A stretch of DNA of 64,000 nucleotides from an uncultured Planctomycetota bacterium (lineage in GTDB: Bacteria; Planctomycetota; Planctomycetia; Gemmatales; Gemmataceae). Each line of letters begins with the position of its first letter. Position 1 is the stretch's first letter. Both the position numbers and the translations under genes were made by a program. Shown here piece by piece: positions 28,252 to 40,635 of the stretch. A model generated the notes under the pieces. The model was not told where the DNA came from. It saw only the letters and a list, made by a program, of their open reading frames with translations, and made no database searches. The DNA is taken from the NCBI GenBank assembly GCA_963849325.1, contig CAWKHF010000010.1, forward strand, positions 416,001 to 480,000, in the 5' to 3' direction.

Positions 28252-28769
28252 CAGCGAAGGAGGCGCAGAATGCAGCCGCCACTGGACTGGATGGTGAGGG
28301 CGAATCCATCTTACGATTCCAACCGGATCGGAGCTCTCTCGCAGGCGAAAGTTCTGACTGCCCTAACCGCGGCTGGGAAAGCCGTCCTCGCGCCCTGCGT
28401 TTGCGTCAGGCCGTACGATTTCGTGATTGAAGAAGATGGATCTTTTTTTCGAATTCAGTGTAAGACAGGACGGTTGATGCGCGGCGCGATTGTTTTTCCC
28501 ACGCACCGGCAGCGTGCGGTGAAACGCGAAACGGGTTGGGAGCGCCGAATCGTGAGCTATGAGGGCGAGATCGAGTTCTTCGGAGTTTATTGTCCAGAGA
28601 ATGACAAAGTCTACCTTGTCCCGCTAAGTGAGGTTCACTCTGCATGGATGGGCATGCTGCGCGTCGAGCCGCCGAAAAACAACCAGAGAAAGCGGATACA
28701 ATGGGCGGATGACTACCTGTTGAAATGATTCCTTCCAGCAGCTGGGGCCGTAGCTCAACTGGGAGAGCG
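28252..28769 (+). mobile_element. putative intron-less homing-endonuclease element inserted in tRNA-Ala
   Basis: Removing 28252-28769 restores a single intact tRNA directly behind its promoter. The segment carries one nuclease ORF and is visibly more AT-rich than its flanks. Confidence 0.65.
28270..28728 (+). CDS. PD-(D/E)XK endonuclease of the group I intron-associated (I-Ssp6803I / PDDEXK_5) type
   Basis: AAGGAGG RBS 6 nt upstream; RIGALSQAKV...V..P...PYDFVIE...FFRIQCKTG...Y...IEFFGVYCP...VYLVP...LRVEPPKNNQ pattern; 152 aa. Confidence 0.85.
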   Translation: MQPPLDWMVRANPSYDSNRIGALSQAKVLTALTAAGKAVLAPCVCVRPYDFVIEEDGSFFRIQCKTGRLMRGAIVFPTHRQRAVKRETGWERRIVSYEGEIEFFGVYCPENDKVYLVPLSEVHSAWMGMLRVEPPKNNQRKRIQWADDYLLK

Positions 28770-28816
28770 TCGCGTTCGCAATGCGAAGGCTAGGGGTTCG
28801 AGCCCCCTCGGCTCCA
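28744..28816 (+). tRNA. tRNA-Ala (anticodon CGC)
   Basis: Cloverleaf: acceptor GGGGCCG/CGGCTCC with G3:U70, anticodon arm TCGCG-TTCGCAA-TGCGA, T loop GGTTCGAGCC; CCA not encoded. Confidence 0.95.
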
Positions 28817-28822
28817 CTTTCC

Positions 28823-29808: not shown

Positions 29809-29837
29809 TTTACAGCCCTTGCGACCCCTGGTAGACT
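29809..29837 (+). promoter_or_regulatory. putative sigma70 promoter of the WXG100/FtsK operon
   Basis: TTTACA-N17-TAGACT with an extended -10 TG, ~38 nt upstream of the ATG at 29875. Confidence 0.55.
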
Positions 29838-29874
29838 GGAAGGGAGAATCAACCCATTCGACGCGGGGGTGAGC

Positions 29875-30147
29875 ATGTCCAAGGCCATTGTTGATCCGGC
29901 GGAGCTGCGTCGCTTTGCTCAGAACCTGAAACACTTCAACAACGAATTGCAGCACCAGCTCGCCGTCCTCCAGGGACAGTTCTCGGGACTCGGCGATACC
30001 TGGCGCGATCAGGAGCAGGAGCGCTTCGCGCAGCAGTTCGCCGAGGCCGTTCAGGTCCTCAGTCGTTTCATGGAAACGTCGCAGCAGCAGATCCCGTATT
30101 TGCTTCGCAAGGCGGAGCGGATCGAAGAATACCTGCAACAGCGCTGA
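29875..30147 (+). CDS. WXG100/ESAT-6-like protein (W-x-D variant)
   Basis: 90 aa; AIVDPAELRRFAQNL N-terminus, central LGDTWRDQEQERF turn, two amphipathic helices, no signal peptide. Confidence 0.85.
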   Translation: MSKAIVDPAELRRFAQNLKHFNNELQHQLAVLQGQFSGLGDTWRDQEQERFAQQFAEAVQVLSRFMETSQQQIPYLLRKAERIEEYLQQR

Positions 30148-30156
30148 CATTCTCAT

Positions 30157-30704
30157 ATGAGCCAATCGGCACGAGTCGGTTCCATCGAGGCGCTCGAGGC
30201 GCTGCAAGCCGCGCTGGCTCGCTTCGGGCCGCAGGCGCGGGAAGCGCTCGGCGCCGCCGAGATCGAGGTTCGCCGCGTTTTCGACTACTTGCACGACCAA
30301 CTCGCTCATTGGCAGCGGCAGGTCGAGAAGCGGCACGAAGACGTCAACCGCGCGCGCGCCGACCTCGCTCACGCTCGCGCCATCCGCCAGGGCGAACGCA
30401 GCGGCTACGTCGAGCAGGAGATGGCCTTGCGCAAGGCGCAGCGCGGCTGCGCGAGGCCGAGGAGAAAGTGGTGGTCGTCAAGCGCTGGCTGCTGCACTTG
30501 CCGCAGACCGTCAACGAATACGAGGGACCGGCTCGCCGCCTGGCCGGTCTGCTCGACGCCGACCTCCAACAGGGCGTCGTCGTCCTGGAGAACAAAATCA
30601 AAATCCTCGAAGCCTACTCCGCCCTGGAAGTGCCTCCCTCCGCGTCGCCGGTCCCGGCCGCCCCGACGACGACTCCCCCACCCTCTCCGGGAGGACCATC
30701 ATGA
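30157..30704 (+). CDS. helical coiled-coil protein of the WXG100 operon (~180 aa); frameshift near 30445
   Basis: MSQSARVGSIEALEALQAALARF... continues in a second frame (RLREAEEKVVVVKRW...ILEAY); its stop overlaps the next ATG. Confidence 0.7.
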
Positions 30705-30913
30705 GTCTGTCCACCGCGTCGATCAGTCTGGCCGACGGGTTGAAGACAGTCGGAGTCCACTGGGATGAGGCCCGCGCGGGCTGGGACGATCCCGTCAGCC
30801 GCGACTTCGAGAATGACTACTGGATTCCCCTGCAAATCCAGGTCGAGACCACCTTGCAAGCCCTCGAACGCCTCGCCCCCATCCTGGAACGCGCCCGGCG
30901 AGAATGTTCTTAA
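30701..30913 (+). CDS. short WXG100-like protein (W-x-D variant)
   Basis: 70 aa, GGAGG RBS, HWDEARAGWDDPVSRDF motif, helical; ATGA-coupled to the upstream gene. Confidence 0.7.
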   Translation: MSLSTASISLADGLKTVGVHWDEARAGWDDPVSRDFENDYWIPLQIQVETTLQALERLAPILERARRECS

Positions 30914-30954
30914 CAATGCCGAAGCATTGTTGCTTGAAGAAGGTAGAACCCGTC

Positions 30955-33900
30955 ATGACGGAACCCTCCTTGATCGCCCGGCAACGAGTGTTGTTGCGAG
31001 AGCTGATTCAGCGAGCCGCCGAGCGCGCCCACGCCGAGCCGGCCATCGCGGCGGCGTTTCAGGAACAGGTGGATGCGGTCGAGAACGAGTTCGCCGATGG
31101 CCGCGATGCCGTCAACGGCCGTCTCCAGCGCGAGCAGGAAGAGAACGAACGTCAGTTCGAGCAGGCCCGCGCCAGCATCGAGGCACGTTACAATGTCGAA
31201 CAGGACACCGCCAACCGCGACTATAACGAGGCCCACGAGGAGATTGTCACACGCGAGAAGTTCGAGAAGAAAGCCGCCGAGGCCGCCTACAAGGAAGCGT
31301 GCTGGACCATCGGCGCCGTCCTGGAAGGGGCCATCAACGAGGCCGAGCAGGAGGTGCGCGAGAACAAGACGCGCCTGATGAACCGTCTCGACAACCTGCA
31401 CACCATCCACAAAGAGGCCCGAGCGCTGCTGGAGGAGTGGAAGCAGTCCGCCAAGGAATTGGAGGCGTCGGCCCGCGACTCCTCTCCGGCCGACCCGAGC
31501 ACCGCGCCGCCCAAGCTGTCCGAATGCGTGGTCGAGGCGCAACGTCTTCTCGAACAGCTGCAGGAACTGGTCGTGCCGCGCTATCTCAAGGCCCGTCGCT
31601 TCTTCGCCATGGTCGTGTTCGTGTGGCTGGCGTCGATCCTGCCGCTGGGGTTCCTGGCCGGACGCATCTGGGGAAAATCGGAGTTGTCGTGGACCCTCAT
31701 CCTGGGCCTTATCGCCAGCAGCTTGACCGTGCTCGCGATTGGCCCCTTTCTGCAAATGCTGCTCGCCGCCGTGGCGCGCAGCCAGATCCGCCACCATTAC
31801 GAACCGCTGTATCAAACCATCCTGGAGGCGGAGAGCACCCGGCAACTGCTGCTGGACCGCTACGAAAACGAAAGCCGGCAGCGCGTCCTGGAGTCCAAGA
31901 AACAACACAATGAGGAGGTCCGCCGCGCTCACACGGCCTACCGCCAACAGCGCGCCGCCAGCAAACGCCGCCTCGAGCAGGATCTGCCTCCCGTCGAGGA
32001 CCGTTATCGGGACCGTCAGCGCGAGAGCGAGCGGCAACGCGCCGCCGATCTCCACCGCGTCCGCGAGATGTACGAGCATCGCCTCCTCGAAATCCAGCAG
32101 CGCCACGACGAGGACATGCGGCAACTCCAGGCCCGCCGCGAGCAATTGCTCCAGGAAGTCCAGCAACACCGTGACGCCGACTGGAATACCCTGGTCGAGG
32201 ATTGGCGGCAAGCCATGAACGGGCTGCAAACGAGCGTCGCCGAGATCAACGAGACGACGCGCCGCTTGATGCCTGGCTGGGACGATCCCTCCTGGCAGCA
32301 GTGGCAACCGCCCGCGACCATTCCGCCGGTGTTGCGCCTCGGCCAGTATCACATCCGGCTCGACCAGGTTCCCAAGGGCGTCCCGGCTGACCCCGGCCTG
32401 CGGGCGTTGACTCCGGCCGCGTTCGAGCTGCCGGCCCTGTGCGACTTCCCCGCCCGTTCGTCGCTGCTGCTGCAAGCCGCGACGCGGGCCGAACCGTCGC
32501 CGTGCAGACGCTGCAGACCATCGTCTTCCGCCTGCTCACCTCGATGCCGGCCGGTAAGGTGCGCTTCGTCATCGTCGATCCGGTCGGCCTGGGCCAGAAC
32601 TTCGCCGCCTTCATGCACCTGGCCGACTACGACGAGATGCTGGTCGCCAGCCGTATCTGGACGGAGACGCCGCACATCGAGCAGCGCCTGGCCGACCTGA
32701 CGCTGCACATGGAGAACGTCATCCAGAAATACCTGCGCAACCAGTACGAAACCATCATGGATTACAACGCCCACGCCGGCGAGGTGGCCGAGCCGTTCCG
32801 CGTCCTCGTCGTCGCCAACTTCCCCGTCAACTTCAGCCCCGAGGCGATCCGCCGGCTGATCAGCATCACGCAGAGCGGGCCGCGCTGCGGCGTCTTGACG
32901 CTGCTCAGCGTGGACACGCAAGGTGCCGCTGCCCAAGGGCTTCGACCTCGCCGACCTCGAAGCCGAACAGCCTGAACTTCGCCTGGGACGGACAGCGCTT
33001 CCGCTGGAAGGACGCCGATTTCGCGGCCTATCCGCTGACGCTGGAGGCACCGCCGGACAACGACTTCGCCAACCGCATTCTGGGGCAGGTCGGCGAAGCG
33101 GCTCGGAACGCGCAGCGCGTCGAGGTGCCGTTCGAGTTCATCGCGCCGGCGGCGGAGGAGTGGTGGCACGCCGACAGCCGCCGCGGTCTGCGCGTGGCCC
33201 TGGGCCGCGCCGGGGCGACGCAGCGGCAGTGCCTCGATCTGGGCAAGGGCACGGCGCAGCACGCCCTCGTCGCCGGCAAGACCGGCTCCGGCAAATCGAC
33301 CCTGCTGCACGCCCTCATCACCAACCTCGCCCTGCTGTACAGTCCCGACGAGGTCGAGCTGTACCTGATCGACTTCAAGAAGGGCGTCGAATTCAAGACC
33401 TACGCCGTCCACGAATTGCCGCACGCCCGCGTCGTCGCCATCGAGAGCGAGCGCGAGTTCGGCCTGAGCGTCTTGCAGCGGCTGGACGCGGAACTGCGAC
33501 AGCCGCGGCGAACGCTTCCGCGATGCTCGCGCCCAGGACCTGAACGCCTACCGCCAGGCCGTGCCCGATGCGCGAATGCCGCGTATCCTGCTCATCGTCG
33601 ATGAGTTCCAGGAGTTCTTCACCGAGGACGACCGCATCTCGCAGGAGGCGGCCCAGCTGCTCGATCGCCTGGTCCGCCAGGGCCGAGCTTTCGGCATGCA
33701 CGTCCTGCTCGGCTCGCAGACGCTCGGCGGCGCTTACACGCTGGCCCGCAGCACCATCGATCAGATGGCCGTGCGCATCGCCTTGCAGTGCAGCGAGGCC
33801 GACGCCCACCTGATCCTCAGCGACGACAACTCGGCTGCTCGCCTGCTGTCGCGTCCCGGCGAGGCGATCTACAACGACGCCAACGGTCTGGTCGAGGGCA

Positions 33901-34919
33901 ACAATCCCTTCCAGGTGGTCTGGCTCGGCGACGATCGCCGCGAGCAATACCTGAACGCACATCCGGGAGCTGACGCGGCAGCGCCCGCCGAAGCTGCTGG
34001 AAGCGCCGGTCGTCTTCGAGGGCAACGCCCCGGCCGACGTCGGCCGCAATCATCTGCTCAACCAATGGCTGCGCGAGCCGGTGACCACCGAGGACGCGGG
34101 CCGGCAGGGTCAGCTCGCCTGGCTGGGCGAGGCGATGGCCATCAACGACCTGACCGCCGCTCCCTTTCGCCGCCATCACGGCAGCAATCTGCTCCTCATC
34201 GGCCAGCAGGAAGAGACCGCCCTGGGCATGTTGGCGACGGCCATCGTCAGCCTCGCCGCCCAGATGACGGCGAGCGAATCGACCCGCGCTTCTACCTCGT
34301 GGACGGCCGGCAAGCCGACGTTCCGACCGAGGGACCATTGGCTCGCTTGCCGGAGGTGCTGCCGCAGACGATCCGCCTGGCCGGCTGGCGCGACGCCCCG
34401 GCGATCATGGCCGAGCTGACCGCCGAGGTCGAGCGCCGGCAGAAGGAGGCCGGCAATCCGCCGTCGATCTACCTCGTCCTCTTCGGCGTGCAGCGCCTGC
34501 GCGACCTGCGACGCCAGGAGGATGATTTCAGCTTCATGCGCAAGGGCGAGGAAACGGCCAACCCCGCCCAGCAGTTCGCCACGCTGCTGCGCGAAGGCTC
34601 CGTCCTGGGCATCCACACCCTGATGTGGTGCGACACGCTCAACAACCTGCAGCGCACCCTCGACCGTCAGGCGATGCGCGAGTTGACCCTGCGCGTCGTC
34701 TTCCAGATGAACGTCGCCGATTCGAGCAACCTGATCGATAGCCCGCTGGCCAGCAAGCTCGGCCTGCACCGCGCCCTGTTCTTCAGCGAGGAGGACGGCC
34801 GGCTCGACAAGTTCCGGCCCTATGGCCTACCTTCGGAGACTTGGTTGAGGCACGTGCGGGAGCAATTGCAGCGCCGCGTCGAGACAAAGGAAGGCGTAAC
34901 GCTTGGCGCGAGCGATTGA
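30955..34919 (+). CDS. FtsK/SpoIIIE-family ATPase (EccC/EssC-like, ~1300 aa); about six frameshifts
   Basis: Coiled coil, two TM helices, coiled coil, degenerate RecA-like domain (VRFVIVDPVGLG), intact domain (HALVAGKTGSGKST; LIDFKKGVEF; ILLIVDEFQE; RQGRAFGMH), degenerate domain (NLLLIG...LREGSVLGIH). Confidence 0.88.
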
Positions 34920-37703: not shown

Positions 37704-37841
37704 AACCACGAATCACACGAATCACACGAATAAAAGACAAAAAGAATAGCAAAGGAGCTGACCGAGCGCAGTTCGGTCTCCCTTCTCCTTATTGTGCTTT
37801 TATTGTCTTCGATTCGTGTGATTCGTGTGATTCGTGGTTTT
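37702..37841. repeat. inverted short-tandem-repeat hairpin, 9-nt unit CACACGAAT / ATTCGTGTG
   Basis: AAAACCACGAATCACACGAATCACACGAAT...ATTCGTGTGATTCGTGTGATTCGTGGTTTT, between convergent genes. Confidence 0.9.
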
Positions 37842-40461
37842 GTTCCTGGATTTGGGCGCGGAGGAGCTTATAGTCGGTTTTGCCCGTGCCCAGGACGGGG
37901 ATGCGTTCGACCTGTCGCACTTCATCGAGCCGCATGACGCCGCGGAAACCCTCTTCGAGCAAGCGTGCATTGGCGTCGCGCAAATTCATCGGCTCCGTCG
38001 TGAACAGCACGATGCGCCGACCGGACTCGGTCTCGACGCCCTCGACGGCCACGCGCGGCCCGTCCTTGGTCGGCGGATAGATGCGGATGAACGGTTCTTC
38101 CAAGGCCGGCAGCGAGATCATTTCGCCGCCCGCCTTCAGGAAGCGCTTCAGCCGGCCACCGAAGTGGATAAAACCGTCGTCGTCGATGTGGACCAGATCG
38201 CCGGTGACGTACCAGCGTTTGCCGTCGCGCTGCTGAAACGGCGACGGGCCATCGTAAGCGATGTAGCCGGGGAAGACGGTCGGACCGCTGACAAGCAACA
38301 TGCCGAGTTGGTTGGCCGGCAGTTCCTTGTCCGATTCCAGATCGACCACGCACACCTCGACGCCAGGTAGCGGCTTGCCGAGCGTGCCCGGACGGTTGGC
38401 ATGGACCGTGTTGGCCGACACGACCGGCGAGCATTCCGTGATGCCGTAGCCCTCCAGCAACGTCGCTCCCGGCACCAGCCGGGCGCAGCGCTCGCGCACG
38501 CTCGGCGGACATTTCTCGGCGCCGACGATGACCAGACGCAAGGACGTCAACTGCTCCGGCTCCGCTCGTTCGAGGATGTAACTGACGAAGGTCGGTGTGC
38601 CGGCGACGATGGTCGGACGATATGCCCCGATCTTGCGCCAGGCCGGAAGCATCGGTCGGATCGGGGTGGTGGACCACGCGCATGCCGCCCAGCAGCGGCA
38701 GCACGCCGGTCACGGACATGCCGAAACTGTGAAAGGCCGGCAGGAAACCGAGAATCGAATCGCGGCGGGCCAGGCCGAGGAACGGGATGCCGTTGCGTTG
38801 ATTGGTGAGAATGTTTTGATGCGTCAGCGGGACCGCCTTGGGTGCTTTTTCCGAGCCGCTGGTGAAGAGCACCACGGCAGGCTGGTCCGGAGAGACATGG
38901 GGGACGTGCTTGCGGACGGAGCCAGGCAGCCAACGCACGCCCAGCAGCGTGCGGAGCAACTCGACCTTGCCCATGCCCTTGCGCAGCGTCTCCAGGTGCA
39001 GGTACTCGACACCCTCGATCTCAATACCGGTGCGGTCGATGAAGGCGCGCGAGGTAACGACATGGGTTAGTTCCATGATACGAGCGGCATGGGCCAGGTT
39101 CGCCGGGCCGGTCGTCCAGTTGAGGAGGACAGGCAGCTTGCCGGCCAGGTGCAGGGCCATGAAGGCCGTGTCGCAGGCCACCGAGGCGGGCAGCATCAGA
39201 CCGACGTTGGCTGACGGCAACTTGGCGAAACGCCGGCTCATCGCCAGCGCCCCCGTCAGCATTCGCTCGTAGGGGACGGCGCCGGCCATGTCGTCGGCGG
39301 TAGCCACGTCGCGCGGGTTGGCCAGGGCACGGGCGATGAAGGCTTCGGCGATGGTCTCGCCCAGGATCTCCATCGCCCCCTCCTGCGCGAGCGGAGCGAA
39401 CCAGCCGGCCGGCGGCGGTTTCGGAGGGCCCTTCTCGACCAAGCCCTGAGCCAGCGCCCACAACTGGCCCAGCGTCATCGGCACCTGGTCCGACGTGAAG
39501 CCATACTGCTGCTCAACGCGCAGGTTCAGCTCCATGCGATCCAGACTATCCAGCCCCAGTTGGTCGAAGGTGGTATCCGGTTTCTGTTCGTCCTCCGTCA
39601 GCGCCCGGCCGAGCTTGTCCGCAATCATGTGCGTGACGGCCTCGCGGACCTCCGGTTTGATCTGCCCCGGATCGGCCTCGGCCAGCCCCGTGATCTTGGG
39701 GAAGTCGAAGGTGCGCCGGCCGAAGGCGAAGTGATACGGCACATAGGTAGGCGCCTCGGGACCACCTTCGTTGTACCAACTCTCGAACCAGGGGTTGAGC
39801 GTCTCACGGCGCAGCTCGGGCAGCCGGGCACGATCGACCCGTTCGATGGTGAGTTCGACCCGGCGACGCGGCATGAGCACCATCAGGTTGGCTAGCAGCC
39901 AGCCGACGCCGGCGGCGTAACGACCGATGAGATGGGGGTGCTCGCCGGTCTGGGCGTAGCCGAACATGCTGCCCCAGAGGCCGCGCGTGCGCACCCGCAC
40001 GACCGTCGCCTCGGGCACCGCCTGCAAAATGTCGGCCAGGGCGCGGCGCCGCCGAGCCTTTCCACGCCGTCGCGCTGGGTGTGTCCCGATGGCCAAAGGA
40101 TGTAATTCTCGCCGTTGCGCAGGCCGGCGATGACCACCTCGACCGCCTTCTGCGCCCGCGAACGCGCCTTGGCGCTGGCCTGGTCCAAATCCGGGACACG
40201 CACCGCGTTGAGAAGCTTTACCAGCAGAGACAGGAAGGGGTTGTTGAAATGGCCCTCGAAGACCATCGGCCGCGGCTTCAGTGACGGCCACACGGCGGCG
40301 AGCACGAGCAGCGGATCGACCAGTCCCGGATGATTGGGCAGGACGAGGACCGGACCTTTCAGGTTGCGAACCTGCTCCAGCCCGTGAACGCGGACGCGGT
40401 AGCGCAGCGATACGAACAGTCGCGTCAAGATCCATAACAAGTAGCGCAATGGCAAGAGCAT
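37789..40461 (-). CDS. Aas-like fusion: PlsC acyltransferase + acyl carrier domain + AMP-dependent acyl ligase; frameshifts near 40045 and 38655
   Basis: NHPGLVD (HxxxxD), GLDSLD phosphopantetheine site, FTSGSEKAPKAV, EGYGITE, YVTGD and GTGKTDY. Confidence 0.85.
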
Positions 40462-40563
40462 CACATCCCCTCTCGAAAAACGGATCGTGCCGGCGCAGCG
40501 ATCCGTGCAGCACTGTATCTGAAAAAATCAGGCACGGCCAGAGGGGTGATGTCACGGCAGGCG

Positions 40564-40635
40564 CGTAGGGTGGGCCGAGCTTGCGAGGCCCACCAGGTCC
40601 GCTTGGTGGGCCTCGCAAGCTCGGCCCACCCTACG
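40564..40635. repeat. GTAG-type REP doublet (palindrome)
   Basis: CGTAGGGTGGGCCGAGCTTGCGAGGCCCACCA...TGGTGGGCCTCGCAAGCTCGGCCCACCCTACG. Confidence 0.85.

Follow-up and report, generated by a model that had tools for sequence, protein, structure and literature searches.

What does a compact operon that pairs small helical proteins with a large FtsK-like ATPase do in a planctomycete, and is it a secretion system of a new kind? The question is raised by a stretch of 64,000 nt (the window; contig C10, positions 416001-480000) from the 8.16-Mb assembly of an uncultured Planctomycetota bacterium, in which four genes on the plus strand, termed here g1, g2, g3 and the ATPase gene, are tightly packed between 29809 and 34919. 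An initial annotation, made from the letters of the DNA, had read them as a stripped-down variant of the secretion system known as type VII (T7SS) and had put them forward as the best candidate for a new system in the window. From the evidence below, the locus can fairly be called 'minimal type VII-like', but not a 'new system'. Our favored reading, held with moderate confidence and by analogy with characterized systems, is that the locus is a chromosomal copy of a module consisting of a solo WXG protein and an EccC/YueA-like ATPase, and that it probably acts as a minimal type VII-like exporter.

What is understood of type VII secretion comes from Actinomycetota and Bacillota only, in which the ATPase needs several membrane partners. 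T7SSa (ESX), in Actinomycetota, comprises EsxA/EsxB together with EccB, EccC, EccD, EccE and MycP. T7SSb (Ess/Yuk), in Bacillota, comprises EsxA with EssC/YukB, EsaA, EssA, EssB/YukC and EsaB/YukD, and has LXG toxins with Lap partners. If a version with the ATPase as its sole membrane part does export proteins, it would be the simplest system for studying how a folded helical bundle is transported across a membrane, and planctomycetes, along with other bacteria of the Gram-negative type, would join the groups that use the type VII mechanism.

The first gene carries much of the assignment. Against the Pfam WXG100 model (PF06013) g1 scores 36.2 bits, where the gathering cut-off is 27.3, and orthologues score 36.2 and 42.3 bits. 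A profile built from 81 orthologues and searched against the Protein Data Bank (PDB) has Helicobacter pylori HP0062 (3fx7, 2gts) as its best match (E 3.8e-11, residues 1-88), followed by B. anthracis EsxB (E 2e-8). The g1 segment GDTWRDQE provides the key motif; in the HP0062 alignment tWRDqehekF stands opposite sWRDarrdkF, with W-R-D in register. W43 and D45 are invariant in all 81 sequences, and the C-terminal end is the most constrained part, conservation of at least 90% being found at 13 of the last 17 positions versus 23 of the first 73. Judged by its sequence, then, g1 belongs among the WXG100 proteins of HP0062 type, resembling HP0062 in its alignment over the full length, in the same W-R-D turn and in having an FtsK/SpoIIIE gene as neighbor; homology to the solved HP0062 implies a hairpin with the motif at its bend. 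At that bend neither g1 nor g3 has W-x-G. Both have W-x-D, a replacement that the initial annotation had noticed and that turns out to be fixed, in 81/81 g1 and 76/76 g3 sequences; its description of g1 as WXG100-like likewise holds. No other protein of this genome exceeds the WXG100 cut-off. A second, weak match (C12, E 0.35) falls within an open reading frame (ORF) for an FHA-GAF-histidine kinase, and was discarded as a chance match.

The ATPase is the other main component, and its layout was read off orthologues with unbroken frames: it starts with a coiled coil of ~210 residues, followed by two hydrophobic helices, a second coiled coil of ~170 residues and three P-loop-like FtsK modules. 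Walker A lies in the middle module only in 18/18 orthologues; GKTGSGKS and the Walker B DEFQEF are confined to that module, and the flanking modules have neither. Pfam FtsK_SpoIIIE matches cover the first and middle modules. A profile search of the PDB ranks T. curvata EccC (4nh0, 4.5e-34), EccC5 (8e-28) and B. subtilis YukB (2e-24) well ahead of FtsK (3e-6); DNA translocases of the TcpA type, like FtsK, are far behind the T7SS motors. The best NCBIfam matches are EccCa (3e-34), EssC (2e-29) and EccCb, with FtsK at 3e-5. The nearest solved relatives of the ATPase are thus the T7SS motors EccC and YukB. As a separate observation, the cytoplasmic part of the ATPase also finds FtsK/SpoIIIE genes on a Rhodococcus plasmid (34% identity) and a Deinococcus plasmid (28%), where two or three small genes (73-94 residues) come after the ATPase gene, not before it.

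The four genes belong together. Eighteen loci were retrieved, drawn from the same genus, from its family and from another family of the order; all of them have g2, g3 and the ATPase gene in order, and g1 was found by BLAST in 17. Among 41 relatives, 34 have a match to the N-terminal part of the ATPase. With each species represented by one genome, a scan gave at least 566 relatives of g1, and the best 80 bear Planctomycetota labels except for one metagenome-assembled genome (MAG) labeled Alcaligenaceae; these 80 include Gemmataceae, Isosphaeraceae, Pirellulales, Planctomycetaceae, Phycisphaerales, Limnoglobus roseus PX52 and Gemmata sp. IIL30. The cultured planctomycete L. roseus PX52 carries the module intact, with its four genes. 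Where at least 2.5 kb of downstream DNA was available, all four genes stood in order in 62 of 67 loci, in agreement with the order first proposed. The remaining five genomes, mostly MAGs labeled Phycisphaerales, encode the orthologous ATPase at another place (for one of them, on the opposite strand at a distance of ~9 kb): four (L060, L073, L076, L088) have g1-g2-g3 without an adjacent ATPase gene, and one (L106) has g1 alone. The motor and the small genes therefore co-occur even when unlinked. A small genome (G306:C3:236149-236685) has two extra tandem g1-like genes that match more weakly (E 4e-10 and 4e-12) beside a standard copy, possibly a WXG pair of another type.

Canonical T7SS partners were sought in the relatives by profile searches, in each of which the positive controls, C. 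glutamicum (T7SSa) and B. subtilis (T7SSb), were matched. EccB (PF05108), YukD (PF08817) and YukC (PF10140) exceeded the cut-off in 0/41 genomes, and EccD (TIGR03920), EssA (PF10661) and LXG were found in 0/21; EccE, MycP and EsaA were not searched. Among the canonical parts searched, no T7SS component beyond WXG100 and the ATPase is detectable. The absence of partners remarked on initially is thus borne out for those parts, as is the lack of a toxin-immunity pair in the planctomycete operon, and the description as a stripped-down T7SS variant, with WXG100-type proteins and an EccC/EssC-like ATPase, stands.

Set beside the known systems, the module resembles T7SSa in having a WXG100 substrate-type protein and an FtsK-like ATPase of several modules, anchored in the membrane, for which T7SSa supplies the best solved matches (4nh0, 7np7) and whose active module aligns to EccC D1. 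It differs in having three P-loop-like modules where T7SSa has a DUF plus three, in the long coiled coils on both sides of the membrane hairpin, in W-x-D instead of W-x-G, and in the partners EccB and EccD that were not found. Its likeness to T7SSb lies in YukB, which is among the best ATPase matches, and in the arrangement of g2 between two small hairpin proteins, which by analogy is reminiscent of the LXG domain and the two small partners that target it; unlike T7SSb it has no FHA domains, and YukC, YukD, EssA and LXG were not found.

The two other small proteins could be placed by structure prediction. No match to g2 was found in Pfam (LXG included), NCBIfam or PDB sequences, or to g3 among Pfam families, and pairwise hhalign comparison of g1, g2 and g3 gave nothing significant. 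AlphaFold2 models confidently predict that g2 is a long helical hairpin and g3 a short one. For g2, a same-genus orthologue was modeled with 73 orthologues (predicted local distance difference test, pLDDT, 92.8; helices 10-76 and 85-157), and its Pro-rich tail is disordered in the model. The g3 protein contains AGWDD, with W28 and D30 invariant in 76/76 sequences; its model (pLDDT 93.8) has helices 3-27 and 31-69, with W28-D29-D30 at the bend. The hairpins expected for these proteins are therefore supported by the models, and the WXG-like label given to g3 fared less well: its register with WXG100 is suggestive, and the sequence link is not significant. Both g2 and g3 are single-copy in 5/5 genomes. 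In a protein atlas, Verrucomicrobiota and Planctomycetota are where proteins resembling g2 occur (score 0.95), which we treat as a lead only. A rough hydropathy scan found no signal-peptide-like N-terminus among 81 g1, 76 g3 and 73 g2 sequences (highest 12-mer Kyte-Doolittle value, 1.7), in keeping with the original statement that the small proteins lack signal peptides.

This combination is already in print. Footnote 6 to Table 1 of Zhang et al. (2012, Biol Direct 7:18, PMC3482391) describes a solo WXG protein with a distinct YueA-like ATPase that has three HerA/FtsK domains, the middle one alone active; it names planctomycetes, verrucomicrobia, cyanobacteria, bacteroidetes and some proteobacteria as hosts, and calls the modules 'mobile versions of T7SS'. 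With its solo WXG, its three-module ATPase with Walker A in the middle module only and its planctomycete host, the locus is, by architecture, a member of this class. It departs from the label 'mobile' in that the planctomycete module is chromosomal, single-copy and mostly follows order-level taxonomy, though patchy; and the class as described in that footnote (PMC3482391) does not mention the hairpin genes g2 and g3. The turn motif is not new either: a 2012 review of H. pylori structures (PMC3397514) describes HP0062 as an ESAT-6-like hairpin without a signal peptide that forms an antiparallel dimer and has WRD replacing WXG, and whose gene is clustered with one for an FtsK/SpoIIIE protein. 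According to a 2023 review (PMC10765036), Gram-negative WXG100/ATPase pairs are known and of unconfirmed function. A term search of a 2024 survey of T7SS variants (PMC11217815) returned no mention of planctomycetes, chloroflexi or diderms, and our literature search, which did not extend to supplements, found no study of the planctomycete module apart from Zhang et al. The novelty claimed initially cannot be sustained, and the value of this window is limited, the class being published and this copy being frame-broken in the assembly. What is added here is a phylum-wide count, the co-occurrence of motor and small genes when unlinked, the single-copy state of g2 and g3, and a lead from plasmids outside the phylum.

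That lead comes from two plasmid copies found with g1, in Helicobacter sp. NHP19-012 and in Caballeronia sp. SBC2 (pSBC2-5). The Helicobacter plasmid (8001-12403) encodes, in order, a WXG-like protein, a 340-residue protein, an SMI1_KNR4 (SUKH) protein, a 77-residue protein and an FtsK/SpoIIIE ATPase of 823 residues. The 340-residue protein has a C-terminal WHH/colicin-DNase nuclease domain (1e-11) and is followed by the SUKH immunity-type gene; compared with the planctomycete module, then, the ATPase is shorter and a nuclease-immunity pair occupies the g2 slot, recalling the LXG toxins of T7SSb. The Caballeronia plasmid (7267-16264) encodes a WXG100 protein, then proteins of 436, 113 and 76 residues and a 927-residue FtsK/SpoIIIE ATPase, and its 436-residue g2-slot protein matches the g2 profile (probability 74%, E 2.8e-5). 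This copy is set among genes for VWA-domain, DUF1887 CARF, PP2C phosphatase and Ser/Thr kinase proteins, a neighborhood that suggests phosphorylation control or the context of a conflict system. Because the plasmid relatives hold larger proteins in the g2 slot, one of them a nuclease with an immunity gene, these two loci suggest that it is a cargo slot able to carry a toxin. Planctomycete g2 has no toxin domain.

Homology, gene linkage and the analogy of EccC/EssC allow a sketch of how the module would work. In this sketch the ATPase would oligomerize in the inner membrane, where its membrane hairpins would line or gate a channel, with the middle module as the source of energy. The C-terminal module, which is degenerate, would be the docking site for the near-invariant C-terminal helix of g1. 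A folded helical bundle of g2 and g1, the latter either by itself or together with g3, would exit into the periplasm.

Several points weigh against an exporter. The role is a predicted function that rests on homology and gene linkage, and the periplasm as destination is a guess, no outer-membrane or channel partner being known. The roles put forward initially (periplasm-only export, membrane remodeling, defense) are likewise guesses. The NCBIfam T7SS matches of the ATPase all fall far under the curated equivalog cut-offs (EccCa 118.8 bits with a cut-off of 509, EssC 101.7-112.7 with 778, EccCb 98.6 with 347). The P-loop module matches the PADLOC models of the defense protein SspH (3.2e-31) and of mad8 (1.4e-21) at almost the level of EccC, and HerA models too are matched, so that the T7SS assignment leans on the WXG100 linkage and the multi-module architecture. 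Foldseek finds only generic coiled-coil hairpins for g2 (best E 0.03). The comparison of g3 with g1 by hhalign is not significant (E 0.002, probability 14%), nor is a WXG100 link of g3 to PDB profiles (E 0.2-0.6). On the plasmids, no match to the g2 profile was obtained with the protein in the g2 slot of Helicobacter, and the small gene of neither plasmid matches g3. Lastly, in an even sample of the phylum the module was present in 61/401 genomes and 49/280 genera: it is widespread but patchy, not universal, and the idea of a housekeeping module universal in the phylum was rejected on this count.

A more far-reaching version of the exporter is a type VII machine that carries no toxin and is sufficient in itself: the ATPase alone, anchored by two helices, would form the inner-membrane channel, a fixed g1-g2-g3 bundle would be exported, g2 would be the counterpart of the stalk of an LXG-type cargo with g1 and g3 as its targeting partners, and the nuclease-bearing plasmid versions in proteobacteria would be the weaponized form. 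We regard this version, built by analogy, as doubtful. If true, it would provide the simplest working model of type VII secretion and the first in outer-membrane bacteria of the Gram-negative kind.

Alternatively, the module might be a machine for conflict, defense or DNA handling, in which small helical adaptors regulate a membrane-anchored ATPase of the FtsK/HerA type. The PADLOC matches of the middle module point that way, as do the patchiness within families, in which genera are all positive or all negative (5/5 for genus g25, 0/7 for genus g26), the genes around the Caballeronia copy and the term 'mobile' used in the footnote of Zhang et al. (PMC3482391). However, g1, g2 and g3 have no PADLOC match, the best solved relatives of the ATPase are T7SS motors rather than DNA translocases, and the WXG100 linkage together with the nuclease-immunity pair in the g2 slot fits a toxin exporter. 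Nor do the signs of mobility agree: the module is patchy and has two plasmid copies, yet it is chromosomal here and has no conserved flanks, and 13 pattern matches among viral contigs included 0 confirmed relatives. A FastTree phylogeny of 46 ATPases largely follows the orders, with 8 changes of order label (minimum 4, mean of shuffled labels 12.6, 0/200 shuffles as low), and is compatible with descent that was mainly vertical and accompanied by losses, although some transfer and errors in the labels are possible. We consider a defense or DNA-handling role unlikely. Least probable is a device for membrane remodeling or envelope stress, in which the ATPase would assemble or disassemble g2, acting on the membrane as a PspA/Vipp1-type hairpin: the weak matches to the g2 structure include Vipp1/PspA hairpins (E 0.16-0.4) and long amphipathic coiled coils flank the membrane hairpin of the ATPase, but those matches are no better than many to unrelated coiled coils, g2 has no sequence similarity to PspA, and the WXG100 partner and EccC-like motor would be left unexplained.

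As assembled, neither g2 nor the ATPase gene is an ORF. Together they contain seven small indels, positioned by alignment with four same-genus orthologues: 1-nt deletions near 30441 (g2) and 32479 (ATPase), 1-nt insertions in the ATPase gene near 32917, 32963, 33503 and 33957, and a change in it near 34283 whose size is ambiguous since it lies inside a length-variable linker. The relatives have intact ATPase ORFs of 1293-1370 residues and intact g2. The four genes recognized initially are real, and the frame breaks in two of them had been missed.

As a control for error, 128 long ORFs from related loci were aligned to the whole genome, and 29 distinct genes outside the operon with identity of at least 60% were kept. 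Frames were broken in 11/29; the changes number 19 over 38.7 kb, or 0.49 per kb, six of them in the 1.9 kb of one gene; such errors are clearly clustered in this genome. Its canonical ftsK, too, can be read only by combining two frames, and a same-genus assembly of five contigs shows splitting of the same kind. Because frame breaks are this common genome-wide, the indels of the operon are very probably assembly errors and not decay. One result counts against that conclusion: when scored as changes between high-scoring segment pairs (HSPs), the operon has six in 5.05 kb versus 2.5 expected (Poisson P ~0.04). None of the public sequencing runs contains this DNA (best share 0.07); the four runs compared gave only short fragments of relatives (88-99% likeness), two of which show once more that relatives lack the indels at 30441 and 33503 and do not bear on error in the assembly.

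The rival to assembly error is that the operon is a decaying pseudogene in this genome and the indels are real mutations. Seven frame-disrupting indels in 5 kb, their HSP-level excess, and the fact that the genes remaining intact, g1 and g3, are the short ones would all fit decay. Against it stand the breaks in the control genes and in ftsK, an assembly with a completeness of 84.7% in 14 contigs whose same-genus counterpart is similarly split, and the ATPase pieces themselves, which are 65-97% identical to an intact orthologue and have no in-frame stops or large deletions. We judge decay improbable. Programmed frameshifting was dropped, as no slippery motif is common to the sites, the frame of the relatives runs unbroken through each of them, and breaks occur genome-wide. 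Every gene call in this assembly needs to be read across frames. Other examples of broken frames are at G000:C10:51684-52293, outside the window, and C5:940020-941925. Within the window, two overlapping ORFs of 287 and 898 residues in different frames (37789-40618, minus strand) resemble parts of one AMP-binding/acyl-carrier-type enzyme, probably another assembly frameshift.

The coordinates of the operon are collected in Table 1, and the packing of four genes on one strand, as first described, is confirmed. The start of g1 is ATG at 29875, with GTG at 29869 as an alternative, and a GGGGG/GGAGG stretch ahead of the ATG is conserved. Nine nucleotides separate the g1 stop from the g2 start, the g2 stop in the corrected frame overlaps the g3 start (ATGA), and 41 nt separate g3 from the ATPase start, which was chosen by alignment with relatives.

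Table 1. Features of the operon (window coordinates)
Feature	Position	Strand	Basis or remark
Promoter-like site	29809..29837	+	TTTACA, 17 nt, TAGACT; TG ahead of second hexamer
g1, 90-aa WXG100 protein, HP0062 type	29875..30147	+	Pfam PF06013; W-R-D at hairpin bend
g2, ~182 aa read through, helical, Pro-rich tail	30157..30704	+	Frame broken near 30441
g3, 70 aa, predicted helix-turn-helix hairpin	30701..30913	+	W28-D29-D30 at bend
EccC/EssC-like FtsK/SpoIIIE ATPase, ~1319 aa read through	30955..34919	+	Frame-broken; NCBIfam and PDB profiles
ATPase membrane hairpin, two hydrophobic helices	31597..31780, approximate	+	Hydropathy scan of four orthologues
ATPase Walker A GKTGSGKS, middle P-loop module	33275..33298	+	Window translation; sole Walker A
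ATPase Walker B LLIVDEFQEF	near 33585-33605	+	Window translation

The single promoter proposed initially received mixed support. One such site was seen in the region versus 0.7 expected from shuffles, a count that alone is not significant. Both hexamers, TTTACA and TAGACT, are kept in 6/7 close relatives within upstream DNA that is otherwise unalignable, and this conservation supports reading the site as a real promoter.

The operon is flanked here by an SDR gene, a tRNA-Ala gene, a PD-(D/E)XK gene, a DUF433 gene and a GH2-like gene, none of which is conserved beside the module in the 18 fetched loci. The PD-(D/E)XK endonuclease gene (PF11645, E 4e-28) lies at 28270-28817 of the window, directly upstream of tRNA-Ala (CGC).

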